Origin: Fidelibacterota bacterium | Lineage (GTDB): Bacteria > Fidelibacterota > Marinisomatia > SCGC-AAA003-L08 > GCA-002704045 | Assembly: GCA_002703375.1 (NCBI GenBank) | Contig: NZTO01000049.1 | Span: 38,901-102,900 of the forward strand | Length of the DNA stretch: 64,000 nt | Reading direction: 5' to 3' | Shown here: one piece after another, positions 11,680 through 47,207 of the stretch | Layout of the letters: every line of letters starts with the position of its first letter | Numbering within the stretch: the first letter of the stretch is position 1 | Notes under the pieces: model-generated | Databases searched by the model: none | Seen by the model: the letters and a program-made list of their open reading frames with translations, nothing else | What the model was told of the DNA's origin: nothing | Translations under genes and position numbers: made by a program

Positions 11680-13251
11680 TTAGTTGGAGTAAGCAAGACC
11701 ACCCATACCACTCATGATGCGAAGCACATTGTAGTTGACGGCGTAGATTCTTACCTTGGCGGTCATAGTGCCCTCAACGGTGGCGTTCGAGAGAACGAGT
11801 TGAAGAGTGGCGTTGTCAATGCGCGAGAAATTGCAGGTGCCCGAAGGTTGGTGCTCTTCAGGGCGGAGAGCGAACGAGTAGAGATTGACGCCGGTGTCGG
11901 GGGTGCGGGTGTGGTGTTGGAATGGTTGCACGAGGTCGAAGTAGGTACCTTCACGCTCAGAGAAGCGGTCTTGACCGTTAAGTTGGAGTTTAGCGGTAAC
12001 AACAGGATTTTGGCCCCAGCAGTGCATGTTGAGAGCAGTTTCGGCGAGAACGAAGGTGCCAGCGTCCGATACAAGGGAGCCTTGCGCGGCTCCACCACCG
12101 TCATGAAGACCGGAGGTGGCCCAGCCCTCTGTGGAGCCGGCAGGCGCGTCAGCACCGGCGTTGTCAAAGAGGCCAGAGCCGTGTATCATTGTATCGAGAG
12201 AGTCACTGTTACCGAAGGCGTGGAAAGCATTAGGAAGAGCATCGTAGGCGTCGGTGTAGTTGAATGGTTGGGCGCCTAGAAGTTTGAAAAGAGGAGTTCC
12301 TGCGTCGAGAGACGAGCAGTAGTCAACGTTTTGGTCGGGTTGTACAACCCAGACGAGTTCCTTACAAGGGTGGTTGAAGTTGAGCTTGATCTTGTTCGAG
12401 GAAGAACCAACCGACTCATCACCAGTGAATTGAAGTTGTTCGATGAGGTATTCATGGGGATTTTGAGCCATGCGACGTCTCTCGTCGGTGTCAAGGAAAA
12501 TGTAGTCTACGTATAGCGAAGCGGCGACAAGAGATTGCGAGTAGGCCGCGGTCGCCTTGGGGGTGCCGCTGGTCGAGGCGATGTCAGAGACAGCCCAAAG
12601 GCACTCATCAATAGGGCGGAGGTCAATGTTAATTTTTACCTCGTGGTATTGGAGAGCGATGAGGGGTAGCGCAAGACCAGGGTTTCTGCAGTACCAGAAT
12701 TGAAGGGGAACGTAAAGAGTGGTCTCAGGAAGAGCTTTGCGAGGAGCGCAGGTTTGGCGAGGCGCGTCCGAAGAGCAAGGGGTGTCAACCTCAGCAAAGG
12801 TGGGGTCGGTGATGTAGGTTAGCGAAGTGGTTTGTCCAACCATGTTGTGGTAGCCAACTTCTTGTTCCTTAGATTGAGTTAGAGTGTTCCAGATGTGCAT
12901 CCAGTCACCGTATTGACGGTCAATGCGTTGACCACCAATCTCAATCTCAACTTGCGAAACTAGCTGATGTCCAGGGAAATCAAGCCATCGAGCATAGTAG
13001 GCATGGTCTTGGCCAATTTCTGGTAGAGTTAGTTGCAGGTAAGTTCTGTAGGCAAGATCACCATTTCTTGAGATGGTGCAAGTCACCCGGCGACCGAAAT
13101 CAGCTTGGCCGTTGAAAGTTTGTTCGATTGCTTCCATAGCAAAGTTAGTGTGGCGTCTGTAGGTAACTTTCCAGAATGTAATTTGTGGATTGCTCGTTAG
13201 ATATACGTCTTGAGCTCCGTAAGCGACGAGTTGCATAAGTCCTCCTCCCAT
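11680..13251 (-). CDS. mcp: NCLDV major capsid protein
   Basis: N-terminus MGGGLMQLVAYGAQDVYLTSNPQITFWKVTYRRHTNFAMEAIEQTFNG and later blocks (LPLIALQYHEVKI, EYLIEQLQF, NFSRIDNATL) are typical of Mimiviridae/Phycodnaviridae capsid proteins. The 523 aa are uninterrupted. Confidence 0.95.
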   Translation of the reverse strand: MGGGLMQLVAYGAQDVYLTSNPQITFWKVTYRRHTNFAMEAIEQTFNGQADFGRRVTCTISRNGDLAYRTYLQLTLPEIGQDHAYYARWLDFPGHQLVSQVEIEIGGQRIDRQYGDWMHIWNTLTQSKEQEVGYHNMVGQTTSLTYITDPTFAEVDTPCSSDAPRQTCAPRKALPETTLYVPLQFWYCRNPGLALPLIALQYHEVKINIDLRPIDECLWAVSDIASTSGTPKATAAYSQSLVAASLYVDYIFLDTDERRRMAQNPHEYLIEQLQFTGDESVGSSSNKIKLNFNHPCKELVWVVQPDQNVDYCSSLDAGTPLFKLLGAQPFNYTDAYDALPNAFHAFGNSDSLDTMIHGSGLFDNAGADAPAGSTEGWATSGLHDGGGAAQGSLVSDAGTFVLAETALNMHCWGQNPVVTAKLQLNGQDRFSEREGTYFDLVQPFQHHTRTPDTGVNLYSFALRPEEHQPSGTCNFSRIDNATLQLVLSNATVEGTMTAKVRIYAVNYNVLRIMSGMGGLAYSN

Positions 13252-17211: not shown

Positions 17212-18957
17212 ATGACTAAATTGTTAAATTATCAATATACAGAGTCTACTTTAGAGAATATAGAAGCGCTGAACATAAAAAATATGCAAAAATACAATCC
17301 AATCTATAAACAATTTTTTAAATTATGTGAAAATAATTATAATAAAATAACATTAAATCAACACTATACTTTGTCACATATTTTAGAAAAAAAATCATTT
17401 TCAAGATATTTATGTAAAGTTACCAAAAATAATGAATTTCTAGAAAAAGAAACATTTGTAAAATTCGCTCCAATTTTAGACCCTATCAAATACATGGTTG
17501 GGAAATATGATAATAAAGATAAAAACCTATTTATTCTACCAACACTATTAGATGATACTTCTAAATATGAAAAAATGTGTGATTACAATAATTGTGCATA
17601 CACCGATGGATTTTTTTCCTTTCTTGCAAGCAAATTGTTACATGAATATAAGTTTTTAAATGCCGTTGATTTTTATGGTTCATATCTAGCCAATCATAAT
17701 AATATGATGATAAATATTTATGACGATATTGAGTTTTTAAATGATTCAGATGATTTTCATAAAAATAAAAAGATTTACTTTGATGTAGACGATTGTTTTT
17801 ATGATGAAGTTTCAAACTATGATTCGAATCATAACAAAAAAAAAATAAATATTTCATCCGGAAAAAATATGGATGAAATCGAGGACATCAAAGATATCGA
17901 AGACATCAGTGCCATTGAAGCCATCGAATATCCTGTAAATGTTGAAATCGAAAATATAGTAGAAACAAGTGGAAAAGATACTTCTTATATAAATTTATCG
18001 GATCTTAGTGATTTAAGTTACAATTTCCTTGATATATCTTTAAATAATTCTAAGGAAGAAAGTGAGTGTTCTTCTATAACATGTTCATCTAGGTCATCAC
18101 ACACAGAAAATAGCAAGGAAAATGAAGAAGAAGAAGAAAAAGAAAGCGATGATTCTTGTGAAGAAAGTGATTGTGAAAGCGAAGAAGAAAAAGAAATATT
18201 TTCTTACATAAAAAATTTTCCGGTAAACGTTATATTTCTAGAGAAATGTAACCAAACCCTTGACTCCTATATGTTAAAAAATGATATGGAAGAACAGGAA
18301 TGGGAAAGTATACTTCTACAAATTATATTCACGTTAATTACCTACCAAAAAGTATTTGATTTTACACATAATGACTTACATACAAATAACATTATGTATG
18401 CTGAAACCGACAAACAATTTATATACTACACTTATAATTCTAAAACATACAAAATACCTACATATGGAAAATTGTGGAAAATTATAGATTTTGGAAGGGC
18501 AATTTTCAAATTTAATGGAAAATTGCTTGTTAGTGATAGTTTTTCAATAAAAGGTGATGCTGCAACACAATATAACTTTGGACCATATTATAATAGCAAA
18601 AAACAAAAGGTAGAACCCAATAAAAGTTTCGATTTATGTAGATTAGGCTGTTCTTTATTCGATTATTTTATAGACAATATTAAAAATATCAAAGACCGAA
18701 GCGACTGTGACAACTTACAGTGCCTGATATTAGAATGGTGCGAAGATGATAATAATAAAAATGTACTATATAAAAATAACGGAGAAGAGAGATATCCGGA
18801 ATTTAAATTATATAAAATGATATCCAGAACCGTTCATAAACACACACCAGAACGTCAATTAGATCGTATATTGTTTGATGAATATCGCGTATCAAAGAAA
18901 AAACTCAACAAAAAAGTCAAAATCATGAACATTGATGAAATTCCTTGTTTTGTTTAA
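17212..18957 (+). CDS. protein-kinase-like protein with acidic insert
   Basis: Catalytic-loop-like HNDLHTNNIMY and DFG motif IIDFGRA. I saw no clear Gly-rich loop. There is a central Glu/Ser/Asp-rich tract. Confidence 0.55.
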   Translation: MTKLLNYQYTESTLENIEALNIKNMQKYNPIYKQFFKLCENNYNKITLNQHYTLSHILEKKSFSRYLCKVTKNNEFLEKETFVKFAPILDPIKYMVGKYDNKDKNLFILPTLLDDTSKYEKMCDYNNCAYTDGFFSFLASKLLHEYKFLNAVDFYGSYLANHNNMMINIYDDIEFLNDSDDFHKNKKIYFDVDDCFYDEVSNYDSNHNKKKINISSGKNMDEIEDIKDIEDISAIEAIEYPVNVEIENIVETSGKDTSYINLSDLSDLSYNFLDISLNNSKEESECSSITCSSRSSHTENSKENEEEEEKESDDSCEESDCESEEEKEIFSYIKNFPVNVIFLEKCNQTLDSYMLKNDMEEQEWESILLQIIFTLITYQKVFDFTHNDLHTNNIMYAETDKQFIYYTYNSKTYKIPTYGKLWKIIDFGRAIFKFNGKLLVSDSFSIKGDAATQYNFGPYYNSKKQKVEPNKSFDLCRLGCSLFDYFIDNIKNIKDRSDCDNLQCLILEWCEDDNNKNVLYKNNGEERYPEFKLYKMISRTVHKHTPERQLDRILFDEYRVSKKKLNKKVKIMNIDEIPCFV

Positions 18958-21253: not shown

Positions 21254-22993
21254 TTAATAACTACTTAAACTTTGTGTAAACGGATTATTTTTAAACGCTT
21301 GTAATAAATCGGGCTCAATTCTATCAGTGTTTGTGTTAGGTAGTTCTTGTTTTCCATGAAGTTGGCCATATGTCTGTATATCCGGAGAATACGATGGGCC
21401 AATTGTAGTGTTTGTTGTACGATAATTCTGGGTATCTCTCTGGGTTACAAGATCAGGATTAATTTGATTATTAAAGGTATCTATATTCCCAGATGGAGTG
21501 AATGAATACGTGTCCCGGTTCACATTGTTTCGTTGCGCGTATTCTGCATCCGATACTCTAACTCCACTATTATTACCACCAGAACCATAGTTCTCTACGT
21601 GAAAATCGCTTCTTTTACTATCCACAGTTCTTTTTTGATCTAATAAATAAGCATTTGAATTTTGCATACCGTTTCGTTGAATGTTCATGTTATACGGCTG
21701 ACTTCCCGTCATCTCTCTAATGGTTGTTTTCGGTTCATTTTTTTGATATACATATTCTCCTCCCGCTCCGGCTCTTTCGACGTTTCCATTGATTCTTATA
21801 TTTCCAATAACGTTATCTTTTTTTGTTGGTCTCAAAAAGTCCATAACTGGAGCCATAATTGCACCAATCGCGCCCCCGGCCGTTCCAAAAGTGTGTGTTT
21901 CGTCTACCGTAGAACGATTATTAGGCAATGTATTATAGGTTCCGCGTCCATTATTTGATTCTGTGGTGGGCGCCGTATTAACTCCTGTAGATATCCCATA
22001 ATTTTCTTTATATGTATGAGGCCGCATTGAACCTTCATAATTTTCTGGTGCCATTCCTTTAATCATGTGCGCACCCCCCGCATTACCACCATAAGCCGAA
22101 AGCGTGCTAATTCTGTTCACATCGGGTAATATTTCAAGAGCACGAGTTGTTTGTCGTTTTTCTAAACCTGTCGTTGTAAGATATCTTTCGGGACCATTCA
22201 TGTAATACGTATCGGGCTTATGTTGTTCCATTTTACCATAAATACCCCGATTTTTAATTTTTGACATTGCTGGACCTTCATGTGTTGCTAGATCATATGT
22301 TCTTTTGGGATTTGTAGATACACGAAGTTCATCTACCGATTTTGGCATCCAATGTTCTCGTGCACCCATCCCCGAATTAAAACCCGTATATCCTTCCCCA
22401 TTCTTTAATCCCGGTGCTTCTCTTTCCTCTTCCCACGGTTTTGTATTGTTTTGTTGTAAACTAGTAGTTTGTCTAGATTGCATAAAATCATTCATATTTG
22501 GAGCACCGTGTGCCCACTGCATTGATTCTTCAGGCTTGAATAAAGGAGCAACCTCCTCTTTATTGTACGATTGAGAACCAGAACCCATTTTATTGTCTAA
22601 AATACTTTCCGCCGTATTATCTTCTAAATTAATACCTTTAATTTTGCTTCCAAAAAAAGGAGCCATATTATTATGTTTAAAATCACTTTGATTTACTACA
22701 TCTCCACTTAAAGAAACAAATTTTGAGCCCATAAATTCCTCTTGTTTTCCATGTAAATCATCATGCGTTATTCTTTCGGAGCTTACCTCTGTAATTGGGT
22801 CTACATTTGAATTGTCCGTTGACCGATATCTTCGACTTTCTACATTATTTGATTCATAATGATTAATTGGTTTTGTATATTTTTGCTCCTTTGTCTCAGG
22901 GTAATTTGTAAATCTCTCTATCGATGGTTTTTTTTCGCTATTCATAATTGTATATACACCTGTGGCACCAGCTAAAGCTATTAGTACTTCCAT
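21254..22993 (-). CDS. hypothetical protein, probable virion component (579 aa)
   Basis: It has an N-terminal hydrophobic helix, then Gly/Asn/Thr-rich sequence. It lies in a co-oriented block of late-looking genes. Confidence 0.55.
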   Translation of the reverse strand: MEVLIALAGATGVYTIMNSEKKPSIERFTNYPETKEQKYTKPINHYESNNVESRRYRSTDNSNVDPITEVSSERITHDDLHGKQEEFMGSKFVSLSGDVVNQSDFKHNNMAPFFGSKIKGINLEDNTAESILDNKMGSGSQSYNKEEVAPLFKPEESMQWAHGAPNMNDFMQSRQTTSLQQNNTKPWEEEREAPGLKNGEGYTGFNSGMGAREHWMPKSVDELRVSTNPKRTYDLATHEGPAMSKIKNRGIYGKMEQHKPDTYYMNGPERYLTTTGLEKRQTTRALEILPDVNRISTLSAYGGNAGGAHMIKGMAPENYEGSMRPHTYKENYGISTGVNTAPTTESNNGRGTYNTLPNNRSTVDETHTFGTAGGAIGAIMAPVMDFLRPTKKDNVIGNIRINGNVERAGAGGEYVYQKNEPKTTIREMTGSQPYNMNIQRNGMQNSNAYLLDQKRTVDSKRSDFHVENYGSGGNNSGVRVSDAEYAQRNNVNRDTYSFTPSGNIDTFNNQINPDLVTQRDTQNYRTTNTTIGPSYSPDIQTYGQLHGKQELPNTNTDRIEPDLLQAFKNNPFTQSLSSY

Positions 22994-27988: not shown

Positions 27989-29092
27989 ATGAATCCAAGA
28001 TTAGATCGTGTTTCTCAAAATGAAAATAAACTTACACTATCATTCACAAATACTAACTATAGTATTATAAATGCTTTACGTAGAACTATAATATCTGATA
28101 TTCCTGTTGTTTCTTTTACTACATTTCCTCACGAAAACAATAGGTGCGAAATCTTTAAAAATACTAGTGGACTTAACAATGAAATAATTAAACATAGACT
28201 AGCATGTATCCCCGTACATTTGGACCCCACTAGTAAAACATATGAAACACTTAAGGTTGTTCTTAAGAAGAAAAATGATACAGACCAAATTATGTTCGCA
28301 ACAACTGGTGATTTTCAAATTTATGACACCAATACGGATAAACCCTTGTCTACCGCCGATAGAAATGAAATTTTCCCACCCAATGAAATTACTAAATATT
28401 TCATCGATTTTGTTCGTCTAAATCCAGAAATATCCAAAGAAATCCCCGGAGAAGAAATACATCTTGAAGCCATGCTTGATATTAATACTGCTGTAAAAAA
28501 TGGGTGTTATAATTGTGTATCTACTTGCAGTTACATTAATACTCCTGATACCATCCGCGCAAATGATATATGGATCACTAAAGAAAAGGAACTAAAAGCC
28601 TTAAAAACACCCAAAGAAAAAATCGAATCTCTCAAAAAAGATTGGTTCCTATTAGATGCAAATCGTATATATATTGAAAATAGTTTTGAATTTACGATTG
28701 AAACTATTGGTATTTATTCTAATGAAAATATATTTAAAATGGCATGCACTGTTCTGCTAAATCAACTTGAGGAATTAAAGGATAATATTACCAGTGGTTC
28801 TGTTATTATCAATCAACCGATGTCTACTACCGAAAATGAATACGAAGTTATATTGGAAAACATCGATTTCACTATCGGAAAAGTTATTGAATATTATATG
28901 TATGAAATATATTACAACCAAAGAAGTGTTCTCACTTTATGTGGTTTTTATAAAAAACACCCTCATGAAAATTATTCCATCCTTCGCCTTGCATTAACAG
29001 AACCTAGTGATAAATCTATTGTGAATGAATATCTTATTACTTGCATCGAAGAAGCAAAGAAAATATTCGCCACCTTCAATTCTAAATTTTAA
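27989..29092 (+). CDS. DNA-directed RNA polymerase subunit RPB3/RPB11 fusion
   Basis: RPB3/alpha-like N-terminal motif NYSIINALRRTIISDIPVVSF. The C-terminal part (EYEVILENIDFTIGKVIEYYMYE ... GFYKKHPHENYSILRL) resembles RPB11. Confidence 0.8.
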   Translation: MNPRLDRVSQNENKLTLSFTNTNYSIINALRRTIISDIPVVSFTTFPHENNRCEIFKNTSGLNNEIIKHRLACIPVHLDPTSKTYETLKVVLKKKNDTDQIMFATTGDFQIYDTNTDKPLSTADRNEIFPPNEITKYFIDFVRLNPEISKEIPGEEIHLEAMLDINTAVKNGCYNCVSTCSYINTPDTIRANDIWITKEKELKALKTPKEKIESLKKDWFLLDANRIYIENSFEFTIETIGIYSNENIFKMACTVLLNQLEELKDNITSGSVIINQPMSTTENEYEVILENIDFTIGKVIEYYMYEIYYNQRSVLTLCGFYKKHPHENYSILRLALTEPSDKSIVNEYLITCIEEAKKIFATFNSKF

Positions 29093-29116: not shown

Positions 29117-29872
29117 CTATATAATCTCGTCGACCAACCCAAACCCTAAACACGTTTCTGCATCTAACCATAAATCTTTCTGCAATAAGTAATTTAAATG
29201 AGCAGATTTTAATTTCGTACGATTTAAATAAATATTTCCTATGATGTTCATCAATACCCCCATATTTGTCATCTGATCCTGGAGTTCATTGTATTTTCCC
29301 GAATCCGTACCAGATAATTGATGTATTAACATTAAAGAATTTTTTGTCATGTACCTCTTCTTACCCACCACACTTATCAATGTTGCCGCACTCGCCGCAA
29401 AACCATCGATATAAGTATATACAGGTGTTTTAAGATTTTGAATTACATCTAATACATATAATGTATGATACAAACTACCTCCCTGACTTTGAATATGCAA
29501 ATGAATTGGTGGTGGTTTTATTTTATACTGTAAATGAAATATTTGCGATTTCACATCTAAGTCATTTAACCTATTTTTTAACTCATAACAACTTCTTTGG
29601 GAAACCGGACCGTAAAAATATATTTCATTATTAATATCGTGGATTATTCCTACCTCTCCACTTACCACATCTTCATTTAAAAATATCTTTTTCTGTATGT
29701 CACTCTCCTTTTTAATATACGGTTCGCGCTTTACAATATCCGCAGATTCATCCTTATTTGTATTGAACGAAGAAGTCATCCCGATAAAACTACCTAAAGC
29801 TTGCCGACGATTTATCGAAAAACTGTCGGACCCCAAAAAAAGCACTGTTAAAAGTACTTGCTTTAAATACAT
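29117..29872 (-). CDS. clpP: ClpP-family (S14) serine protease with N-terminal presequence
   Basis: Collinear with ClpP: IQSQGGSLYHTLYVLDVIQ (INSPGGS-like), catalytic Ser in DGFAASAATLI, catalytic His in LMLIHQLSG, Asp region KDLWLDAETCLGFGLVDEII. About 90 aa precede the core, starting with the hydrophobic MYLKQVLLTVLFLG. Confidence 0.8.
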   Translation of the reverse strand: MYLKQVLLTVLFLGSDSFSINRRQALGSFIGMTSSFNTNKDESADIVKREPYIKKESDIQKKIFLNEDVVSGEVGIIHDINNEIYFYGPVSQRSCYELKNRLNDLDVKSQIFHLQYKIKPPPIHLHIQSQGGSLYHTLYVLDVIQNLKTPVYTYIDGFAASAATLISVVGKKRYMTKNSLMLIHQLSGTDSGKYNELQDQMTNMGVLMNIIGNIYLNRTKLKSAHLNYLLQKDLWLDAETCLGFGLVDEII

Positions 29873-29902
29873 TTATATATATATATATAAAGGTATTTAA
29901 AA

Positions 29903-31489
29903 TTATTCATAGGATTGTAAAATTCGTGCTGATGGATCCTTAATATTGCCACACCATTTAGGTAGCCATAAATAAGGTATTGTTTCTTCAAATCCACCAT
30001 AATTATTCGAGAAAATCTCTCGATAATATAAACTTTCTTTTAAATATGGTACATTGTGAACACATTTTTTAATTCCCTTGTAAAATTCCGCGTCTGATAT
30101 TTGTTTATCAACTTTCCTTTGAATAATCGAATACCAAGATTCACTCTTTGAAGATACTCCATCGGAAAATGCCTCTTTCGTTCTCCAGACAATGCTACTT
30201 GGTAAATCATGTTCAAATGCAACCCGCAAAAGAAACTTTTCTACTCCATTCCATCTCGCCGGTATTTTTAATTCCGGATCTATGGACATGTAATAATCTA
30301 TAAATTCCTTATCTAAAAATGGAACACGACATTCTAATCCCCATGACGCTATTGATTTCTCCCCGCGCAATACATCAAAATAGTTCAAATCCTTCAACAA
30401 TCGAATCGTCTCCTCGTAAAAACTCTCTTCACTTGGTGCATTTCTAAAATATAGATAACTCCCGGATGCTTCATCACTTCCTTCTCCACTAAATAACACC
30501 TTAATATCAAAGTTCTCTTTTATATATTTCGTAAGTAAAAACATCGGGATACTCGCTCTAACCGTTGTTGTATCATACGATTCAATATGGTATATAACAC
30601 TGTCTATCGCATTAAACATATAATCCTCATCTAATATTAATTCATAATGTTCAGTGTTAAGATGCTCGGCAACTATTCTCGCATACTTTAAATCTTCACT
30701 CCCCCTCAACCCTACAGAAAACGTCTTCAATGTATCTCCCTTGTTATATTTTGTTAAAATCGCTGCAATAATACTACTATCTAACCCACCCGAAAGCAAA
30801 CAACCAAACGGTCGTTCCGTTAATAACCTTCTCTGTACTGACGCCTCCAATTTTTCACGGATTTTTATTACTACATCAACATGAACCTCCAATATTGTCT
30901 TATATTCATAATTATAAAATCTCTTTTTTATACCACCTAATTCCATATAGCAACCCGGCTCAAACTGCTCCGCCTCCAAACATAATTTATTTAAACACTT
31001 TAACTCACTACCTATAACTACCTCATCTTTGTCCGTTCTCCCTATATATAACGACCTTACTCCAAAAGGATCCCTCGCAACATACTTTTTATCCTTCTCT
31101 AGATCTATCAATATAAAAGCATAATCCCCATTTAATCTATGTAGCGTCTCCTCTATTCCATATTTTACATAAAGATGAATAATAATCTCACTGTCACTTT
31201 TCGAATACACCGAAAAATTCTCCTCCTTCATTATATCATCATAATTAAATATCTCTCCATTACACAACAAAATAATGTTTGGATACATCTCTAAATTTAT
31301 TGGTTGACTACCTTTATCCGTTAAATCATTTATACAAAGACGATGAAACATTAAATACATAGAATCTATTACTAACTCTTTTGTATTATCCGGCCCTCTA
31401 TGTTGAATCTTATTTCCCTCCGCAAATAATGTATCACGTAATTCTTGTGTAATTGTACCAGAACCAAAAAAACCAAATATACCACACAT
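29903..31489 (-). CDS. asnB: asparagine synthetase (glutamine-hydrolysing)
   Basis: N-terminal nucleophile MCGIFG, the PP-loop LLSGGLDSS, and full-length collinearity with AsnB. Confidence 0.9.
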   Translation of the reverse strand: MCGIFGFFGSGTITQELRDTLFAEGNKIQHRGPDNTKELVIDSMYLMFHRLCINDLTDKGSQPINLEMYPNIILLCNGEIFNYDDIMKEENFSVYSKSDSEIIIHLYVKYGIEETLHRLNGDYAFILIDLEKDKKYVARDPFGVRSLYIGRTDKDEVVIGSELKCLNKLCLEAEQFEPGCYMELGGIKKRFYNYEYKTILEVHVDVVIKIREKLEASVQRRLLTERPFGCLLSGGLDSSIIAAILTKYNKGDTLKTFSVGLRGSEDLKYARIVAEHLNTEHYELILDEDYMFNAIDSVIYHIESYDTTTVRASIPMFLLTKYIKENFDIKVLFSGEGSDEASGSYLYFRNAPSEESFYEETIRLLKDLNYFDVLRGEKSIASWGLECRVPFLDKEFIDYYMSIDPELKIPARWNGVEKFLLRVAFEHDLPSSIVWRTKEAFSDGVSSKSESWYSIIQRKVDKQISDAEFYKGIKKCVHNVPYLKESLYYREIFSNNYGGFEETIPYLWLPKWCGNIKDPSARILQSYE

Positions 31490-34284: not shown

Positions 34285-37200
34285 ATGTCGGAGAGTTCAA
34301 TACAAATCCAATTAAATGATATAATTCAAATAAATTCACCAGAAAATCCAGTTTTTCATAATAAAATCTTCATTGTTATCTATGCAAGTGAAAGTAAGAT
34401 CAAGATAATAGATTCTCCTGTAAATTTTTTAGAAACGAAGGAAGATTCTTTTCAAGAATTTAATTTACCAATCGAAGATGGTAATTTATTAGATCCAACC
34501 ATAGAAAGTATTGACTTATTAAGTAGAGATGATAATCCTGGATTTGCGATGCAAAATAATTTAACCCCGAACACATGGATTGATATAACTTTTAGCGAAG
34601 AAATACCATCTATCATTACTGGAGAGATTACTAATTTAGAAGAAGATATGATTGAAATAAAAATATATCCTTCCAATAAGGTTATTTACATTGATTTTAA
34701 ATATCAGGGTATACCCGATGATTTACCTATAAAAAGTATTTTAATCCGCGAAAAACCAAAAGAAACAATACTTGATACTACATCAAGGGCTGAATTGGGA
34801 GTATCGCAGCAGGAAGGTGTTAATCTGGATGAGGAAGAGGAAAAGGCCAAAGGAGAAGATGACAAGAGTGAGGAGGGTGACGAGAGTAATGAAATAGAAC
34901 CGGAAGAATCAAAAATAGTATTGGTCGAGTTGGATCAAGTAATATTAGAAGGAGATGCAATACAATTTGGTGAAGAACTTGGAGAGATTTATCAAGAAGT
35001 CACCGTAGACGAGGCAAATAAAAGATATTCAATAGACAGCCAAACAAATGATTTGATGGATGATATGATTTCCAGAATACCTACTAGAGAGAGAACACCA
35101 GAAGTTCTTAACTATTTACATTTGCAAATAAATCGTTTCATAGAACTACGTAAGGAGTTTTCCAAGTTCGATGAAAATGGAAATGCAAATATGCCAAATT
35201 ATAAAGGAGTTAATAATAAACCACTTATCACAGAACTGAAAGATTTCAAAAAGAAGATACCATGGTTAATACCAGTCGCTAAAAATAAGAGAAAGATATA
35301 TCACGGTGAAACAAATGAAACGTCTATTACCGGGGAAAAAATATACGCCCCTCTAACGGATGAAGAATATAATGAAATGGACATACAAAATAAATTAATA
35401 TCAGATGAAAATTTAAATGAAAATAATTATTTAAAACAATACCGTAATGACAAACAAAACACATTTAATTATAATGAACAACGCTATAAAACATTAGTTA
35501 AAAGGGTAACTAGTTTATACACACCATTTAATAAAACCGAAAATAATCATGATATTATATACGAAGCAGAAGTACAATCTTTGTTAAATGTTTTAATAAA
35601 CAATCAGGAAGATTACGATTCATTTGCCGTAAAAGATATGAATATTAAAAAAACTAAATTTCTTATGCAAAATTATGTTCCATCTATAGACCTAATTAGA
35701 ATGGATGCATTGAATAATACATATAAAGTAAGTATATCTAATAAGGATACATTGCAACTATTATCTTTTATGATGTTACCAAAAAATGTAATGAAATACT
35801 CAAAGGCCTTTTTACATGAATCCAATATCCTAGAAAAAATGGAATTAAATTCAAATCCATTTTATTACTATAAATTATTAAATAAACATACCGCACCAAA
35901 TACAATAGATATTAATAGTTTTGAAAATAAAAAAAATTACGATAAAGTAAAATTCTTATCTACCATAACAGAATTTACATTAGATTCATCCATACAAGAT
36001 GAAGATAAATACGATAAATTTTTGAACACTATTGTTCCAAAAATAAAAGACCTATTTTTATACACAAAAAATTTTATCGATGGATATTCCGTAAGAGCAA
36101 TTATAAAAGAAATGGAACCATTCCACGTTTATGGTGAAGACATAACATATCGACAATACGAAGAGTTTAGAACATTTTTAAAACTACAAATCATTGAATA
36201 TAAAAAAAATTTTGTGCAAAAATCCAAGGATTTCAAAAAAATACACCCTCGAAACGATAAACAAGAAGTACATCCTTTACCATTAGCCGTTAGTAACATA
36301 AAACACCCGCTTAATGATAAACTAATGGATTCATATGTATACGAAGAATTATATAATGTCACTACAAATAAAGATTCGACCGCTGAAATCATAAAAAAAT
36401 TAATGATAGATAGTTTTCAAATGGCCAGTAATTCAAATACTTATGGAAACTTGGAATTATTTGGTATAATAGATATCGAAACCGAAATTAAATCTCTCGA
36501 GAATCAATTCTTGGAAGAAAAAAAAGAAGAGGAAGCAAAGGATGATTGCGGTGTGTTCGTTCTTGGGAAAAAGTACGAAGATTATGATGAATTACTGGAA
36601 GATAATGATCGAGATATATATTTCGATAAAAGTTATGATACAACAATATACGACATAATAGATAATTACAAAGAACAACAACAAACTATGGATAAAGATC
36701 AATTTAACATATTCTTAATTGAAGAATTGAAAAAAAATATCGGTCTTTCGGCAGAAAAAGCGAGAGATGATGCCGAGGCTATGATATTAGGTAAACGCCC
36801 GGTAAAAGAAGGGAATTATGCAATGTTAATAAATAGGGGCGATTCAGAGGATGAAAACGATCAATCCTTTTTCCGCCGAGTAAATAATAAATGGGAAAGA
36901 GACGAAGCAATGAAAGGAATATATGCAGATAATCAAAAAATATTCTGTAATATGAAATCCACCTGCTTCCAAATAAATAATGTTTGTAGTTCTAATGAAA
37001 CCGCAGAAAATGAACTAAAGCAAAATGCAATTAAGTACATATTAAATGAATTTGATAAAAGACTAGAATTGGGTATTGATGAAATAACAGATAAAATTAA
37101 AAGAAACATACAAGAAAATGAAAGAATGCTAAAAGCCAAAATACAAATAGAAAAATTTCATTTGCTTAAACATAATAATTTCAAATTTATGCTCGGTGGT

Positions 37201-40200
37201 AATGTAGAAGACATACAAATAAAACAATCCCCATATGAAAAACTTAAAAACTTAATACTGGGTCATAATAATTTCTCCGAAAAACAAAACTATATTTTGA
37301 TATTCTGCAATAAATTTACAAGAGAAAACATTCATGGTGAAAACAATTACTGGTTATACTGTAAGGATTCAAATATAAAATTACTGCCTATATTTTTACA
37401 TAAATTAGCAGTGGCTTATTTTGATGGTACTTATGATTCAAAAATAGAAGAGATATGTAAAAATCAAGGAGAAATAAGTGACGATGAATCTTATTGGGTT
37501 GACCGTCATAGTGGATATTACATAAAAAATATAAGTTACAGCACAGATATGGGTTATGATGAAAGTGGATACGCAATAAAAACTAGCGATATTTTAGAGG
37601 ATGAAAAAGAAATTCTCTTAGACAGCCCAAAACAGGATATAGACCCCATAAATATCAGTATTGACAACATAATAAATGCAATATCAAGTAATACAAGAAT
37701 ATTTATAGAAGGATATCGCGATTTTATAAAAAAGCATGTTAGTGCTTTACTTCCTAAAATAATAAATGAAACCATCTATGAAAAACTAAAGGTCCTCGCA
37801 GAAAAAAAGAATAAAAAAATTCAATCCTATGAGTTATCTGTCAATAAATCACTTATGATTCTAACCTTATCATTTATACACATATCTATCCAGATTTCAA
37901 TTCCACCGGTTTTGACCAGAAATTCTTTTCCAGGATGTGTCAAATCCTTTTCCGGATATCCTTTAGATGGAGACAGCGATTACGGAGGTATAGAATATAT
38001 AGCATGCGTTGCATCTAAAATGAAAAGTTCCAGTTCCCCATGGAATGGTATAAATAAAATGAAAGAAGTTGTTATTACTAGAGAAATTAAAAATTCTATT
38101 GAGAAATACATTATTAATTTACCAACTGTAATATCAAAATTAGAAGAAAAAACAGAATACCTATCAAAACCAGAGAATCAAGAAATACCCGTAAGTGTGA
38201 ATTTTAAAAAATGGATAAATTTCCTCCCACCTCTACAATCGGTACAAATACCCCGAGTAGATAATATAAGTAATGCATTTATACAATCATTCAAAGAAAA
38301 TATGAGAAAGGGCTCAGAAAAACAACACGAACAATATTTAACCTTATACTCAAAAGCAAAAATGCTTACCATGGAAATTATCAAATTTATACAAAATATT
38401 ATCAATTCAAAATCACCCGTACTTACCAATAATTTACTAGAACCCTTTTTAGAAAATGCTTGTTGTAATGATGGATTAGTTCAAGCCTATAATTATTTTA
38501 TAAACGAAAATAAATCTATTCATGACAATAATACACAGATTCTATTCATAGAAAATATACTATACGATTATAATAATTTTTACACGGCACCAATGATGTT
38601 AGATTTAACGAACACAAAAATGTCAATAGTTAATACAAGTGAATATACGGAAGAATTGATATACAAAACATTTATACACTACGGTAATTTAAATAACGAA
38701 GACCCAATCCCTAAAGAATTGGAAATATTCTTCAGTGAAAAACCCGAAGAAATGAAGGACTATAAAAATTTAAAAGAACAAATAGAATTTTTGAAAGAAA
38801 ATGGTAAAAATTTTACGTATGAGAGTTTTATGGACCTACTTAAACTACTATCAAATAATATTCCTCCGGAATATTCTATTAAAACCACACATTATCAAAG
38901 ACTAGATGACCTTCTAAACTTTATTATAGATAATGAACAAAACATCCCCCCCCCCTTCACCAATGGCCTATTGAATTTATTGAAAAATCCGGAAAATAAA
39001 ATGACGGAAAATGACAATGAACTGCAAATGTTTAAAGAATATCTATATAAAAGTAGCACTGAATTAATGGAATCAATTCGATTGTTCCTAACTAGATATT
39101 CATCAACTACTAAAAAGAAAGTAAATGAAACCGTTGATTTTTTAATGAATTTAAATATTTGGAAACCGTTAAACGAAACGATTCCAAATAATGACCATGA
39201 TTACAGCAGAATATTTAGTTTCATGCATGATTTTGTAGATAAATTTTTTATCGTTTTCCCACAAATGATCAAAACAAATAATAAAAACACTAATATATCA
39301 ATACCAAACCATTGGAATATGACCTATTCCGGAAAGAAAAGCATAGAATCTTTGATAGAAATGTATTATTCAAAATTAAATAAGTACATGAATAATGAAA
39401 CTATCATATCACTCTTTCAATCTTTTCCAGATGAGATTGAACTCTACATAAAAATACTTGGAGAGATTCAATTCAAATTAGGAAATTTCATTGAAACTGG
39501 TTCCGATGTCATCTACGAATTTAAAACTTTTGACAAAAATCTTTGTGTATTGATTCATAAGTACGTTATTACTAGTTTAATATATGAGATGACTAATATA
39601 CCAGATGTTGAAAAATTTGAATTTAAACTAGGTAGAAAAGAGTTAGTAGAAACGACGACATCTGTTTCTTTAGAATCGGATTCGCTAAAATTAGAAGAAA
39701 TGGATTTCGAAGAAGATGTGCCAAATACAAATAAAGAGTTAATTGCAAATTATATTATAGATTCATGCTCTATATTTTCAATCACTAAAAAAAAAGTACT
39801 AAACTTTAGCCTGCAAGATATCAAAAAGAAAGTTAACGTCGAAAAAGAAAAGGAAAAACGTTACGAATTCACGGACAAATTAGCAAACATGGATAATGAA
39901 GAACGAGAATTAAATAACTTATTTAAAACTAGTAATCTGGGTGATTGGGGAAAAGGTAAGGAGAAGGGAATAACACAATATCAAAAAGATTTTTTTGATG
40001 CAGAAGTAAAAGATCGTGAGAAAAGAATAATGATTGAACGTAATTTAGCAAATAATCCAAATGTTACCGAAATGAATATAAATATTTTTGCCTTAGAATA
40101 CGAAGAAGAACAAGCCGCTGAGGAACAAATAGAACATGATGCATTTAATATGGAAGATATTCCAGATGATGGTGATGCCGGAGAAAATGACTATTTTGAA

Positions 40201-40218
40201 TATGATGGCGGAAAGTAA
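34285..40218 (+). CDS. very large hypothetical protein (1977 aa)
   Basis: Single uninterrupted 5.9-kb ORF. I saw no P-loop or polymerase motifs. It has acidic tracts near both ends and Cys-containing blocks (FPGCVKSFSGYPLDGDSDYGGIEYIACVASK, LENACCNDG). Confidence 0.7.
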   Translation: MSESSIQIQLNDIIQINSPENPVFHNKIFIVIYASESKIKIIDSPVNFLETKEDSFQEFNLPIEDGNLLDPTIESIDLLSRDDNPGFAMQNNLTPNTWIDITFSEEIPSIITGEITNLEEDMIEIKIYPSNKVIYIDFKYQGIPDDLPIKSILIREKPKETILDTTSRAELGVSQQEGVNLDEEEEKAKGEDDKSEEGDESNEIEPEESKIVLVELDQVILEGDAIQFGEELGEIYQEVTVDEANKRYSIDSQTNDLMDDMISRIPTRERTPEVLNYLHLQINRFIELRKEFSKFDENGNANMPNYKGVNNKPLITELKDFKKKIPWLIPVAKNKRKIYHGETNETSITGEKIYAPLTDEEYNEMDIQNKLISDENLNENNYLKQYRNDKQNTFNYNEQRYKTLVKRVTSLYTPFNKTENNHDIIYEAEVQSLLNVLINNQEDYDSFAVKDMNIKKTKFLMQNYVPSIDLIRMDALNNTYKVSISNKDTLQLLSFMMLPKNVMKYSKAFLHESNILEKMELNSNPFYYYKLLNKHTAPNTIDINSFENKKNYDKVKFLSTITEFTLDSSIQDEDKYDKFLNTIVPKIKDLFLYTKNFIDGYSVRAIIKEMEPFHVYGEDITYRQYEEFRTFLKLQIIEYKKNFVQKSKDFKKIHPRNDKQEVHPLPLAVSNIKHPLNDKLMDSYVYEELYNVTTNKDSTAEIIKKLMIDSFQMASNSNTYGNLELFGIIDIETEIKSLENQFLEEKKEEEAKDDCGVFVLGKKYEDYDELLEDNDRDIYFDKSYDTTIYDIIDNYKEQQQTMDKDQFNIFLIEELKKNIGLSAEKARDDAEAMILGKRPVKEGNYAMLINRGDSEDENDQSFFRRVNNKWERDEAMKGIYADNQKIFCNMKSTCFQINNVCSSNETAENELKQNAIKYILNEFDKRLELGIDEITDKIKRNIQENERMLKAKIQIEKFHLLKHNNFKFMLGGNVEDIQIKQSPYEKLKNLILGHNNFSEKQNYILIFCNKFTRENIHGENNYWLYCKDSNIKLLPIFLHKLAVAYFDGTYDSKIEEICKNQGEISDDESYWVDRHSGYYIKNISYSTDMGYDESGYAIKTSDILEDEKEILLDSPKQDIDPINISIDNIINAISSNTRIFIEGYRDFIKKHVSALLPKIINETIYEKLKVLAEKKNKKIQSYELSVNKSLMILTLSFIHISIQISIPPVLTRNSFPGCVKSFSGYPLDGDSDYGGIEYIACVASKMKSSSSPWNGINKMKEVVITREIKNSIEKYIINLPTVISKLEEKTEYLSKPENQEIPVSVNFKKWINFLPPLQSVQIPRVDNISNAFIQSFKENMRKGSEKQHEQYLTLYSKAKMLTMEIIKFIQNIINSKSPVLTNNLLEPFLENACCNDGLVQAYNYFINENKSIHDNNTQILFIENILYDYNNFYTAPMMLDLTNTKMSIVNTSEYTEELIYKTFIHYGNLNNEDPIPKELEIFFSEKPEEMKDYKNLKEQIEFLKENGKNFTYESFMDLLKLLSNNIPPEYSIKTTHYQRLDDLLNFIIDNEQNIPPPFTNGLLNLLKNPENKMTENDNELQMFKEYLYKSSTELMESIRLFLTRYSSTTKKKVNETVDFLMNLNIWKPLNETIPNNDHDYSRIFSFMHDFVDKFFIVFPQMIKTNNKNTNISIPNHWNMTYSGKKSIESLIEMYYSKLNKYMNNETIISLFQSFPDEIELYIKILGEIQFKLGNFIETGSDVIYEFKTFDKNLCVLIHKYVITSLIYEMTNIPDVEKFEFKLGRKELVETTTSVSLESDSLKLEEMDFEEDVPNTNKELIANYIIDSCSIFSITKKKVLNFSLQDIKKKVNVEKEKEKRYEFTDKLANMDNEERELNNLFKTSNLGDWGKGKEKGITQYQKDFFDAEVKDREKRIMIERNLANNPNVTEMNINIFALEYEEEQAAEEQIEHDAFNMEDIPDDGDAGENDYFEYDGGK

Positions 40219-40252: not shown

Positions 40253-40501
40253 ATGTTTACAAGAACATATGTAAGAAACAATGTATTAACAGTATCTCTA
40301 CTTTTGTTTATTGTTATATATTTTTCCATAAATATTTTAAAACCTAACTTTTTATACGATAAAGACAGTATTCTTAGAGATTTTGGTATTGGATATAGAA
40401 AAAAAACCGTACTACCATTATCTATTATTTCTATGATTTTAGCTATTTTATCTTATTTCATTGTTTTATATTACATTACCGTACCAAGAATTAGATATTG
40501 A
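40253..40501 (+). CDS. small 2-TM membrane protein (82 aa)
   Basis: Two hydrophobic helices. Confidence 0.45.
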   Translation: MFTRTYVRNNVLTVSLLLFIVIYFSINILKPNFLYDKDSILRDFGIGYRKKTVLPLSIISMILAILSYFIVLYYITVPRIRY

Positions 40502-42407
40502 ATTGTTGGGTTAAAAATGGAACACCCTGTGTTCTCATGCGTTTTTTAATATCTTTTGCTTCTTTTTTCGCTGTATATTTACTATATTCACCTAATTCTA
40601 AAGACGAAGGATCTTTTGTCGCTTTCCAAAAACTGTTATCTTGTATTTTTTTATTAAATTTTCTAGTATTATTAAAATTACTATCTTCTTTTAACAATGC
40701 AAAATTTTCCGGATTATTTTCTGTAAATCTGTTATCAATCTCATTAAATTGTTTTGTACCAGATTGATTTTGTGTTTCTATTTCACTCATGGCCGCATTA
40801 TATGCATCGGCTTGCATTTCTGCCTGACTTTTCGTATTATCATACTCACCCATGGGAATGCCAATTGATGTAAATATTTTATTTATAGGTCCAAATACAG
40901 AGTCACCCTTTACAGAACATTTCTCTTCAAGAACCTTTGTATAGGTAATAAGTATTGTCAAGAGACCGGCCAATGATATCCACATAAATTCTCCAAATAA
41001 GTCTTTTAATAAAATTACCTTATATAGTTTTGTGATTAAATTATATAATTCACTCTCTTCGCTTAATATATCTTGATTCAGTTCGTCTTCGAATTCTTGT
41101 TCATCAGACAATATATCTTCGTTGGATTCTTCTAGTTGTAAAGCTGCCTTTTTATTATCTTCATCTAGTTTCTGTAATCTTTCTATTCTTGTACGTAGTT
41201 CATTTATATCACCCTCAAAAGAATCATTATCATTTTGTAATTTTAATAATTCTGTGGTTTTATCTGTTCTTAATGATTCTATACGATTTATATTTTCAGT
41301 GATTTCATTAATTTTTTTAATTAATTCTGGCGACAAAGGCTCGCCTGTTTTTTCCTCTATTTCTTTTAATTCCATACTGATATCTGGTATACTTAAGTTA
41401 TTTAATTCATTATTGGCACCACCTTTAATATCCTCTTTATTGGTAGAAGGAGTGTTTGCTGCTGCTTCGGCCGCCGGGGCGGCGGCTGCTGCTTCTTCGG
41501 CCGCCGGGGCGGCGGCTGCTGCTTCTTCGGCCGCCGGGGCGGTGGGTGCTGCTTCTTCGGCCGCCGGGGCGGTGGGTGCACCTGTTTTGTCGTCATCCAT
41601 TTTAATAGGCTCTGCATCATCTCCTAATGCATTTATCATGGAGTTCGCAACCTTGATGTCTTGTCCTTTCCTAATAATCCTTTTACTTTTATCATCAAGT
41701 TCATCCTCATTTTCCTTAGGAATTTTTGCCTTTTCAATTATATCATCCGGAATATCCCTTATTATTTTTTCATAAATTGAAATATTAATAAATTGAGTAA
41801 ATTTATCTACGTTCATCCCATTTACAAAGTGTTTTATATTTTTGTATCTTTTATCTAATAAAGTATTTAGAAGGTCCACCAAAGATTTTGATAGTTTTCC
41901 ATCCTTTTTTTTTAATGCGGGATCATTTGGGTCATTCAATATTTTTTGAAAGAATGTTTCATATTTTTCAATACCATATAATCTAGAAGATATTTCATAG
42001 CCTATAGTATTTCCAAAAACACTTTTCCAATCCAAAGGCAAAAAATTTATTGTGAAAAATGTAGTTGAAAAAATTAACCCCCAACTTGTAACCGAAGAAA
42101 TTAAAATGGATATAATATTTTTATTAGATACATAGCCACCACAATGTTTTTGTAAATTATCAAATAAAAGTACTAATATTTGAACAGTAATTAAAATTAC
42201 TACATAGGAAATAGATGTATATGTTGCATAGGATGGCGTATGCTTCCATTTACTTTTTTTATTGCTATATGTAATCCCAAATTTTTGCAACACTGCAAAT
42301 TTAGTCATTAAATATCCAAATGTTATTATAAAAAATGTTATATATAGAGTAGTAGGTGGGTTATCTGCACCTAAATCACTTATAGTTTTCATATCGAATC
42401 TATCCAT
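40491..42407 (-). CDS. multi-pass membrane protein with Ala/Pro/Glu decapeptide repeat and coiled-coil region
   Basis: N-terminal TM helices, a central APAAEEAA repeat encoded by the 30-nt GC-rich tandem repeat, then charged coiled-coil-like sequence and a further TM segment. Confidence 0.65.
   Translation of the reverse strand: MDRFDMKTISDLGADNPPTTLYITFFIITFGYLMTKFAVLQKFGITYSNKKSKWKHTPSYATYTSISYVVILITVQILVLLFDNLQKHCGGYVSNKNIISILISSVTSWGLIFSTTFFTINFLPLDWKSVFGNTIGYEISSRLYGIEKYETFFQKILNDPNDPALKKKDGKLSKSLVDLLNTLLDKRYKNIKHFVNGMNVDKFTQFINISIYEKIIRDIPDDIIEKAKIPKENEDELDDKSKRIIRKGQDIKVANSMINALGDDAEPIKMDDDKTGAPTAPAAEEAAPTAPAAEEAAAAAPAAEEAAAAAPAAEAAANTPSTNKEDIKGGANNELNNLSIPDISMELKEIEEKTGEPLSPELIKKINEITENINRIESLRTDKTTELLKLQNDNDSFEGDINELRTRIERLQKLDEDNKKAALQLEESNEDILSDEQEFEDELNQDILSEESELYNLITKLYKVILLKDLFGEFMWISLAGLLTILITYTKVLEEKCSVKGDSVFGPINKIFTSIGIPMGEYDNTKSQAEMQADAYNAAMSEIETQNQSGTKQFNEIDNRFTENNPENFALLKEDSNFNNTRKFNKKIQDNSFWKATKDPSSLELGEYSKYTAKKEAKDIKKRMRTQGVPFLTQQFNI
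41458..41577. repeat. 30-nt GC-rich tandem repeat, 4 copies (coding)
   Basis: Units start at 41458, 41488, 41518 and 41548 (gctgcttcttcggccgccggggcgg[c/t]gg[c/g]t). On the minus strand they encode the A/P/E decapeptide repeat of ORF 40491..42407. Confidence 0.9.
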
Positions 42408-46272: not shown

Positions 46273-46686
46273 TTAAATCTTTTCAATTATAATCCCCGCC
46301 ATTTCCATGATTTCCGGTATCAATTCATCGTTCTTATAATCTTCTATGTAGTAAATATTTTTTATTCCGGAAGCACACAATATCTTTGTGCAGTTAATGC
46401 AAGGATAATGCGTTATGTAAGCCTCTGCTTTGTCGCAACTAACACCGCGTTTGGCACAGTCTGTTATCGCATTTTGCTCGGCATGAATCGTGGCTTGTTC
46501 ATGATTGTTTCTAACAAAAGATTTATGGGGACATCCGGGAAGAAATCCATTATATCCCTGAGATATAATGCGGTTATCTTTTACAATAACACAACCCACT
46601 TTTAATCTCTCACACGGCGAACGTTTTGAAGTTACTAATACTATTTCCTTAAAATAATCTCTCCAACTTGGTCGTTTATTTTCCAT
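46273..46686 (-). CDS. dCMP (deoxycytidylate) deaminase
   Basis: N-terminal WRDYF, zinc motifs HAEQNAI and PCINCTKIL, and a size typical of ComEB/dCMP deaminases. Confidence 0.85.
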   Translation of the reverse strand: MENKRPSWRDYFKEIVLVTSKRSPCERLKVGCVIVKDNRIISQGYNGFLPGCPHKSFVRNNHEQATIHAEQNAITDCAKRGVSCDKAEAYITHYPCINCTKILCASGIKNIYYIEDYKNDELIPEIMEMAGIIIEKI

Positions 46687-47207
46687 TGTACATTAATCCT
46701 ACGTATTTTTTTAATTATTTTCTTACACTTAATTGTAATCGTATTTCTACAACAGCCGTATTCTGTTGCTATCTTATTTACCGGTATTTTATAAATATAA
46801 CGCTTCAAAATCAAATTCTTTTCAAATTCGGTTAATCCGCTTAAAAGATAATCATAGTTTTCAAAATCTTCTGTTATAATTAAATTTTCTTCTTTTAGTG
46901 GCAATGGTTTATTATACAGGGTTCTTATGTAGTCTCCCATATATTTTTTTATCCATCTACTACTATAAGTAGAAAATGCAAATCCCTTTGTTTCGTTATA
47001 TTTACGGGCCGCGTACAAAAGACCGATAGAACCCTCCTGAATCAACTCCTTTTTTTCATCGAGATTTAACCTATTTTTTATCATGTACGACCTAGCAAAG
47101 TAAGGAACCAATCGATAATTGTTTCTCGCATAACTCCTTATCATTTCCGGGGAATTATAACTTGATACAGAATATAATATACTTGATAAAATAATAAAAC
47201 GGTACAT
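46641..47207 (-). CDS. sigma-70 family RNA polymerase sigma factor (regions 2 and 4 only)
   Basis: NYRLVPYFARSY...ELIQEGSIGLLYAARKYNETKGFAFSTYSSRWIKKYM aligns residue-by-residue with RpoD region 2 (NLRLVISIAKKY...[37 protein letters not shown]). The C-terminal LTEFEKNLILKRYIYKIPVNKIATEYGCCRNTITIKCKKIIKKIRR matches the region 4 HTH layout. The first about 15 aa are hydrophobic. Confidence 0.85.
   Translation of the reverse strand: MYRFIILSSILYSVSSYNSPEMIRSYARNNYRLVPYFARSYMIKNRLNLDEKKELIQEGSIGLLYAARKYNETKGFAFSTYSSRWIKKYMGDYIRTLYNKPLPLKEENLIITEDFENYDYLLSGLTEFEKNLILKRYIYKIPVNKIATEYGCCRNTITIKCKKIIKKIRRINVQWKINDQVGEIILRK

Follow-up and report, generated by a model that had tools for sequence, protein, structure and literature searches.

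What can a ClpP-like protease do in a giant virus when no Clp ATPase is encoded near it? The question is raised by a gene in a stretch of 64,000 nucleotides (positions 38,901 to 102,900 of contig NZTO01000049.1; we call the whole stretch the window), which stands in the databases as bacterial DNA and comes from a giant virus of the Imitervirales type. A preliminary description, made from the letters and their reading frames, had presented the product as a virus-encoded ClpP of organelle type. The protein has the fold and the complete catalytic triad of ClpP, but it belongs to a phage-related lineage, appears to lack the features by which ClpP docks to its ATPase, and begins with a leader that looks like the import signal of complex plastids. 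The gene and its parts are the following.

29117..29872, minus strand: complete open reading frame (ORF) of a 251-residue ClpP-like (S14) serine protease, with ATG start and stop codon at 29117-29119, from the ORF listing and Pfam
29822..29872, minus strand: signal-peptide-like N-terminus, residues 1-17 (MYLKQVLLTVLFLGSDS), with a predicted signal-peptidase cut between Ser17 and Phe18
29657..29821, minus strand: presequence and linker, residues 18-72, beginning F-S-I-N-R-R-Q-A-L-G-S-F-I-G-M (conserved Phe and twin-arginine motif), then variable, acidic and disordered
29120..29650, minus strand: catalytic core of ClpP fold, residues 75-251, with a handle region of full length and no residue after the core
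29390..29392, minus strand: codon of catalytic Ser161 in the motif DGFAASAAT, equivalent to S97 of E. coli ClpP and also aligned to human ClpP
29321..29323, minus strand: codon of catalytic His184 in the motif LMLIHQLSG, equivalent to H122 of E. coli ClpP and also aligned to human ClpP
29174..29176, minus strand: codon of catalytic Asp233 in the motif QKDLW, equivalent to D171 of E. coli ClpP and also aligned to human ClpP

The ORF codes for a ClpP-fold (S14 sensu lato) serine peptidase with a complete Ser-His-Asp triad. The preliminary description had called the core collinear with ClpP and had proposed a search with the CLP_protease profile; this Pfam profile (PF00574) matches residues 107-251 at its positions 33-179 of 182, with 97.5 bits and an E-value of 1.1e-27, against a gathering score of 20.2 bits. 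The three motifs which it had quoted for Ser, His and Asp are also in place, residue for residue with human and E. coli ClpP. The alignment, made with MAFFT, used the ClpP sequences of E. coli K-12, Bacillus, Paracoccus, Parabacteroides, Nonomuraea and Arcobacter. All three residues are invariant in an alignment of 27 family members, and Ser161 is at least 90% conserved among 150 distant representatives. The SxGG motif of the oxyanion hole and the full-length handle region are present as well. A single-chain AlphaFold2 model, built on the 27 family members, has a predicted local distance difference test score (pLDDT) of about 90 for residues 75-251 and of less than 50 for residues 15-21 and 26-72. 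When it was compared with solved ClpP subunits in the PDB by Foldseek it superposed with a root mean square deviation of 1.4-1.8 Å over about 173 columns, and with a target-normalised TM-score of up to 0.85. In a sequence search of the PDB with phmmer, human mitochondrial ClpP came out on top with 53.5 bits. To judge from these residues, the protease is apparently catalytically active.

Two other members of the same clan, named in the preliminary description as possible better matches, were tried and rejected. Peptidase_S49 gave 12.6 bits and SppA_dom 21 bits against a cut-off of 155, and NfeD1b_N gave 20.2 bits against a cut-off of 40, while the CLP_protease match is far stronger.

Canonical ClpP (E. 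coli P0A6G7, human CLPP, plastid ClpP; TIGR00493, MEROPS S14.001) shares with the viral protein its fold, triad positions, handle length and the IHQ motif, but the identity is 22-28%, and the differences are found where ClpP meets its ATPase. Alignments to profiles and to PDB entries begin at ClpP position 33-49, and the first approximately 45 residues of ClpP, which hold the axial gating loops and helix A, are without a counterpart in the alignment. Before the core, the AlphaFold2 model shows a short beta-hairpin (residues 76-87) preceded by a disordered linker. In ClpP of Neisseria meningitidis, one subunit contributes Y67, L95, L97 and L119 to the pocket for acyldepsipeptides (ADEPs) and for the IGF/LGF loops, the adjacent subunit contributes V49, L53, T84 and F87, and F117 and L196 belong to the pocket as well (PMC6853987). 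This numbering is shifted by five to that of E. coli. Read from the MAFFT alignment, the pocket positions of E. coli ClpP correspond to the following residues of the viral protein.

V44 in E. coli: K99
L48 in E. coli: N103
Y62 in E. coli: H126
F82 in E. coli: N146
I90 in E. coli: Y154
M92 in E. coli: D156
F112 in E. coli: Y174
L114 in E. coli: T176

Six of the eight positions are thus polar or charged, and in the alignment of 27 members H126, Y154 and D156 are invariant and K99 is nearly so. On the other face of the question, Lys232 occupies the position of the conserved Arg beside the catalytic Asp, which together with the length of the handle is compatible with ring stacking.

A Clp-type ATPase was found neither in the 64-kb window nor in the sequence that flanks the gene at 22 related loci. 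The P-loop ORFs of the window are an A32-like one, a clamp-loader-like one, a 325-residue AAA protein (PF00004) and an 837-residue ORF that has no Pfam match, so the earlier statement that no Clp ATPase is visible in the window was correct. The AAA protein at 57741-58718 was considered as a Clp ATPase and rejected; it belongs to the classical AAA type (PF00004) and has a membrane anchor. The absence of the gating loops, the polar pocket, the affinity to phage proteins described below and a window with no gene for a Clp ATPase, ClpX and ClpA included, together make it unlikely that the protease docks to ClpX, ClpA or ClpC of the host or mixes into host ClpP rings. The preliminary description had held that a viral ClpP would need one or the other; with a gating region that cannot be aligned and a pocket that is mostly polar or charged, such a need is not supported.

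The relationships of the protein point in the same direction. All canonical ClpP models of NCBIfam failed, with 26-80 bits against cut-offs of 228-361 (TIGR00493 50.2 against 308.6, PRK00277 74.6 against 249, PRK12553 80.4 against 228). The best NCBIfam model was NF045542, 'head maturation protease, ClpP-related', which was covered from position 2 to 165 of 165 and reached 103.7 bits, below its cut-off of 120. Among the PHROGs families, which have no curated cut-off, the best was phrog_94 (head maturation protease) with 137.9 bits. The phage head-maturation proteases (NF045542, PHROG 94; for example QVW29416.1 of Staphylococcus phage PHB21) have, like the viral protein, an acidic residue before Gly-x-Ala-Ala-Ser and a deletion of two residues after the helix of the catalytic Ser, and they also do without the N-terminal loop of ClpP. 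They differ in being only 24-32% identical to it, in a gene position between portal and major capsid genes, in a C-terminal extension, in having IHN or IHK and not IHQ, and in a Glu at the third position of the triad.

The family itself is large. A word-index search gave 2219 proteins, and the 120 of these that were listed are mostly 200-255 residues long, 52-99% identical and mainly from marine metagenomes. An exhaustive phmmer search of 1.84 billion representatives gave 231 clusters (at the 50% identity level) at E<=1e-30 and 2462 at E<=1e-10. IMG/VR gave 22 loci with 54-74% identity, of which 14 lie on contigs with GVMAG names, and a second group (L023-L080) at 41-49% identity by tblastn on AT-rich contigs. 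In the second group, the phage nature of two contigs was confirmed by their genes: L035 has a phage-type DNA polymerase and clamp loader, L051 a major head protein. On L035, L041 and L047 the ClpP-like gene is not in a head module, but follows directly after the genes for polymerase, sliding clamp and clamp loader. Examples of these genes, from uncultured AT-rich marine phages, are given here; they code for about 200 residues and conserve an N-terminal K-Y-W-G-E motif.

L035, 6034-6636: phage ClpP-like gene
L047, 5965-6576: phage ClpP-like gene

The proteins of these uncultured marine phages share with the giant-virus protein a core with DGFAASAA and LIHQLS, an extended insert at helix B and an end of the type ...GLVDEII. 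Among cultured phages, tblastn found no close homologue; the head-maturation proteases are 24-30% identical, and the best match reaches about 30%.

We calculated a neighbour-joining tree from 169 core columns with 200 bootstraps, in which plastid and mitochondrial ClpP/ClpR were not included. The giant-virus proteins form one group (75%), which the marine phage proteins (43-49% identity) join as sister group (77.5%), followed by the phage head-maturation proteases. The bacterial ClpPs, together with a protein of Bacillus phage Thrax5 annotated as ClpP, are split from the rest at 75.5%. The protein is thus a member of a large marine giant-virus clade, with uncultured marine phage proteins as its nearest relatives outside, then phage head-maturation proteases, and with cellular ClpP farther away. 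By its sequence, it is assigned to a phage-related S14 lineage and not to canonical or organelle-type ClpP. The preliminary description had seen an organelle-type ClpP here and had asked for a phylogeny; in the tree the protein stands with marine phages, apart from bacterial ClpP, it fails every canonical model and its best profiles are phage ClpP-related, which speaks against that label.

Signs of an organellar origin were also looked for in the PDB search, and none appeared. The chloroplast and apicoplast ClpP/ClpR entries 7eko (42.8 bits), 2f6i (37.8) and 4gm2 (37.2) all scored below human ClpP (53.5), and there was no affinity to chloroplast or apicoplast ClpP/ClpR over human or bacterial ClpP among the PDB matches.

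What sets the giant-virus proteins apart from those of the marine phages is the N-terminus, a part on which the preliminary description is silent. The phage proteins have neither signal peptide nor presequence, only the approximately 35 residues with K-Y-W-G-E, whereas a hydrophobic, signal-peptide-like start is found in the 27 aligned members, in 142 full-length homologues and in all 22 giant-virus loci. The hydrophobic core of the leader has a Kyte-Doolittle mean of 2.45 over 10 residues. An Arg-Arg pattern follows after the leader in 82 of 97 unique N-termini. Among these 82, position -1 is a small residue (Ser, Gly, Ala, Cys or Thr) in 74 and position -3 is small or aliphatic in 81, and four residues before the Arg-Arg, at what is the predicted +1 position, there is Phe in 65, Leu in 5, Tyr in 3 and Pro in 9. 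After the Phe, Leu or Tyr the pattern runs x-x-x-Arg-Arg-x-x-Leu/Ile/Met-x-Gly. The first 22 residues after the predicted cut are net positive (on average 2.5 basic, 1.0 acidic and 4.0 Ser/Thr), and from there to the core the sequence is variable and acidic, with predicted disorder. Divergent loci with a displaced or degenerate Arg-Arg still have the Phe: in L014, L017, L018 and L019 it is preceded by a small residue, in L021 by Pro.

Bipartite plastid signals of red-lineage algae with complex plastids consist of a signal peptide and a transit peptide, commonly with a Phe at +1 that is crucial for import (PMC4329603). Two of these features, an ER-type signal peptide (ER, endoplasmic reticulum; assigned by hand) and an aromatic residue or Leu at +1, are present in the family leader. 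The transit peptide of such signals carries a net positive charge, few acidic and several hydroxylated residues, and the 22 residues after the predicted cut resemble it in composition. The match is qualitative, and on this comparison the leader looks like a bipartite import signal of complex plastids. It also lends indirect support to one part of the preliminary description, an effect on plastid proteostasis, although the route by way of an organelle-type ClpP is not supported.

The likely counterparts in cultured haptophyte viruses also have predicted signal peptides. HeV RF02 ORF295 (255 residues) and PkV RF02 ORF205 (269 residues), from Imitervirales of marine algae, are S14 proteins of similar length, and SignalP6 gives them signal peptides at residues 1-21 and 1-23, respectively, that is, of 21-23 residues (PMC11953307). 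In contrast to the present analysis, that paper gives them only a generic role in 'protein quality control', and it does not discuss presequence, phage affinity or the missing docking features. Our literature searches found nothing relevant on viral plastid-targeted proteins and no localisation data for ClpP-like proteins of giant viruses; PMC5784728, on inteins of chloroplast ClpP, has no bearing on the question.

Within the presequence, the pattern S-x-[N/Q/D]-R-R-x-x-[L/I/M]-x-G-x-x-x-G-M, in the region of residues 18-32, is far better conserved than its surroundings. Signals of twin-arginine translocation (Tat) have a motif of the type S/T-R-R-x-F-L-K, then a moderately hydrophobic stretch and an A-x-A cleavage site. 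S-x-N-R-R-x-x-L-x-G is similar to this motif, the more so in members with RRDILKG or RRDVLKG, but no more than about 8-12 hydrophobic residues follow and there is no evident A-x-A.

A second protein in the window has a leader of the same kind.

46641-47207, minus strand: sigma-70-like ORF of 188 residues, Sigma70_r2 44 bits (cut-off 24), weak region 4, 17 kb from the ClpP-like gene

Its N-terminus reads MYRFIILSSILYSVSS and then YNSPEM, a signal-peptide-like stretch followed by Tyr. Three close homologues (P0302-P0304) have the same layout, with Tyr or His and then a basic stretch behind the leader, and the more distant matches are ordinary bacterial sigma factors of 234-290 residues. A sigma factor acts only with a bacterial-type RNA polymerase, and in an alga this is the plastid enzyme; a route by signal peptide therefore makes sense only for a complex plastid. 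The preliminary description had counted two organelle-type regulators in the window. The sigma-70-like ORF has a signal-peptide-like leader; the ClpP-like protein is phage-type.

From these observations we propose the following course of events, to which we give a probability of roughly 45%. The nascent protease would enter the host ER co-translationally by means of a cleavable signal peptide, which would be cut off just before the conserved Phe18. It would then be carried onward into the complex plastid of the host. There, after loss of the presequence, the core would form a self-compartmentalised peptidase that acts independently of Clp ATPases. Such independence is suggested because the N-terminal gating loops of ClpP are absent and the IGF/LGF pocket is largely polar. 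During infection the peptidase might degrade or process proteins of the plastid or the periplastid space, alongside the virus-encoded sigma-70-like factor with its similar leader. Cultured related viruses infect haptophytes, and haptophyte plastids sit within the ER lumen. In such hosts the known bipartite signal for plastid import is a signal peptide with Phe at +1 and then a net positive, hydroxyl-rich presequence, and in a host of this kind the plastid would be the most likely destination of the protease.

Several points weigh against the proposed plastid import and ATPase-independent action. The cleavage site was assigned by hand with the -3/-1 rule, the argument from the pocket is a sequence alignment and not a modelled oligomer, and the tree is a simple neighbour-joining tree of moderate support without plastid or mitochondrial ClpP/ClpR. 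The orthology of HeV RF02 ORF295 and PkV RF02 ORF205 was inferred from annotation, length and signal peptide, not from a sequence comparison. The motif RRxxLxGxxxGM is more strongly conserved than is usual for transit peptides, and the strict conservation of Arg-Arg-x-x-Leu-x-Gly-x-x-x-Gly-Met is beyond what a generic transit peptide explains; it may be a Tat-like signal, a dibasic processing site or a propeptide. Finally, a minority subclade (for example P0107-P0116, L011, L012 and L015) keeps the signal peptide without the Phe or the presequence, and therefore the ancestral or general destination may be simply the ER or the secretory lumen.

This last point leads to the main alternative, rather unlikely in our view, that the protease never reaches a plastid and trims host or viral secretory proteins in the ER, the vacuole, at the cell surface or at the membranes of the virus factory. 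The signal-peptide-like N-terminus is what all giant-virus members have in common, the subclade without Phe and Arg-Arg presequence included, a papain-type C1 protease in the window (listed below) also has one, and the authors of PMC11953307 propose that viral proteases relieve ER stress. A residence in the ER does not readily account for the Phe, Leu or Tyr that stands exactly at the predicted +1 in 73 of the 82 Arg-Arg N-termini and persists where the leader has otherwise diverged, nor for the net positive stretch that follows, unlike the acidic residues which follow the leader in both the C1 protease and a GDSL-like ORF of the window. A sigma factor with a signal-peptide-like leader would also have little purpose in the ER lumen proper. 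Improbable, in our view, is the model of the preliminary description, in which a canonical ClpP is powered by ClpX or ClpC of a host organelle or is built into host ClpP/ClpR rings. Fold, triad and handle length are as in ClpP, the IHQ motif is canonical, Lys232 stands in for the conserved Arg, and haptophytes have Clp ATPases, as a host Clp ATPase in the proteome data of PMC11953307 shows. This has to be set against scores of 26-80 bits where the ClpP models demand 228-361, the missing axial loops and helix A, the six polar or charged positions out of eight in the pocket, a tree that groups the protein with phage proteins, and the chloroplast ClpP 7eko that scores below human and bacterial ClpP.

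A role in building the virion, by processing of capsid, scaffold or core proteins in the manner of a phage, is very improbable. It is suggested by the best profiles, which are those of phage head-maturation proteases, and by the distances of 4 kb to the P9 gene and 16 kb to the major capsid protein gene. However, the NF045542 score is below its cut-off (103.7 against 120), the gene is not beside a capsid, portal or scaffold gene, the protein has no C-terminal scaffold extension, and some of the closest phage relatives (for example L035, L041 and L047) carry the gene in a replication module. The likely homologue in PkV RF02 (gene_205) was not found in the virion proteome data, in which the control protein gene_134 is present, and a packaged or structural role is therefore disfavoured. 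A signal peptide would, in addition, separate the enzyme from the assembly of capsids in the cytoplasm. The capsids of nucleocytoplasmic large DNA viruses (NCLDV) are built of double-jelly-roll proteins and not of HK97-fold proheads, which also speaks against a maturation protease of the phage kind.

That the gene is viral, as the preliminary description had said, is clear from the rest of the window, which is AT-rich (about 30% G+C). In addition to the genes given here it codes for VLTF3, an A32-like ATPase and a P9 minor capsid protein, the last 4 kb from the ClpP-like gene.

11680-13251: NCLDV major capsid protein, 16 kb from the ClpP-like gene
47536-48933: mimivirus-type poly(A) polymerase
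27989-29092: Rpb3/11 subunit, immediately adjoining the ClpP-like gene
29903-31489: asparagine synthase, the other neighbour of the ClpP-like gene
10260-11243, plus strand: C1 cysteine protease of the papain family (252.7 bits), signal-peptide-like at its N-terminus (MRGLVFMAIIMSSYSD); a second protease of the secretory pathway
48952-49602: GDSL-like ORF with a signal-peptide-like N-terminus
57741-58718, minus strand: classical AAA ATPase of 325 residues (PF00004, residues 184-318) with a hydrophobic, membrane-anchor-like N-terminus

The NCLDV capsid, poly(A) polymerase, Rpb3/11, VLTF3, A32 and P9 genes identify the window as part of a giant virus of the Imitervirales type. The gene order Rpb3/11, ClpP-like, 421-residue and 1977-residue gene is conserved in the flanks of the related loci. 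A public protein 99% identical to the ClpP-like protein exists, and MAP67430.1 is a member of the 90%-identity cluster of that protein. MAP67430.1 and P0301, which is identical to the sigma-like protein, were deposited as proteins of a metagenome-assembled genome (MAG) of 'Candidatus Marinimicrobia bacterium' (CMF80_07020 and CMF80_07110). This is clearly a case of mis-binning, in which a contig of a giant virus was placed in a bacterial MAG.

The 325-residue AAA protein may resemble proteins that in related viruses carry the annotation BCS1 chaperone. Five large ORFs of 579-1977 residues are without a Pfam match at E<=0.001: 34285-40218 (plus strand), 2081-4594 (minus), 17212-18957 (plus), 21254-22993 (minus) and 40491-42407 (minus). 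The 1977-residue ORF is conserved and syntenic in related giant-virus loci. Upstream of the ATG of the ClpP-like gene there is a 30-bp spacer (29873-29902), in which a (TA)7-like run (tttatatatatatatataaATG) adjoins the start codon. The mimivirus-type early-promoter octamer AAAATTGA is absent upstream of the ClpP-like gene, and in the window as a whole it is not enriched but under-represented (11 copies observed, where 20 would be expected).

ClpP-like genes are already annotated in CeV-01B, HeV RF02, PkV RF02, Bodo saltans virus, Fadolivirus, Klosneuvirus and others, and our literature searches on giant-virus ClpP found no functional study. The Clp-like proteins in BFVD (Fadolivirus, CeV-01B A0A0N9R1J6, Bodo saltans virus, Klosneuvirus and Faunusvirus) share the ClpP fold and come from Imitervirales genomes, but they are 16-30% identical to the present protein and belong to different sub-lineages. 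What is added here, as far as sequence can tell, is that the protein appears to be of phage type and not of organelle type, that it seems to lack ATPase-docking features, and that its leader resembles an import signal for complex plastids; only the predicted plastid leader would surprise a specialist. Genes of this kind are widespread in marine giant viruses, as the 231 clusters at E<=1e-30 show. Their routine label, 'ATP-dependent Clp protease', suggests a Clp ATPase as partner, for which the sequence gives no support.

In a wider sense, we tentatively suggest that a lineage of marine giant viruses may send phage-derived proteins of bacterial type, an ATPase-independent ClpP-like protease and in this genome also a sigma-70-like factor, into the complex plastid by use of the host's bipartite import code, and that they may rewire plastid proteolysis and transcription in this way. 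The Arg-Arg-x-x-Leu-x-Gly motif might then add Tat routing across the thylakoid membrane. If the leader does serve for import into plastids, there would be evidence at the level of sequence that giant viruses of algae with complex plastids place a protease of their own, and perhaps a sigma factor, within the plastid of the host, and it would point to viral control of the photosynthetic organelles of ocean phytoplankton.

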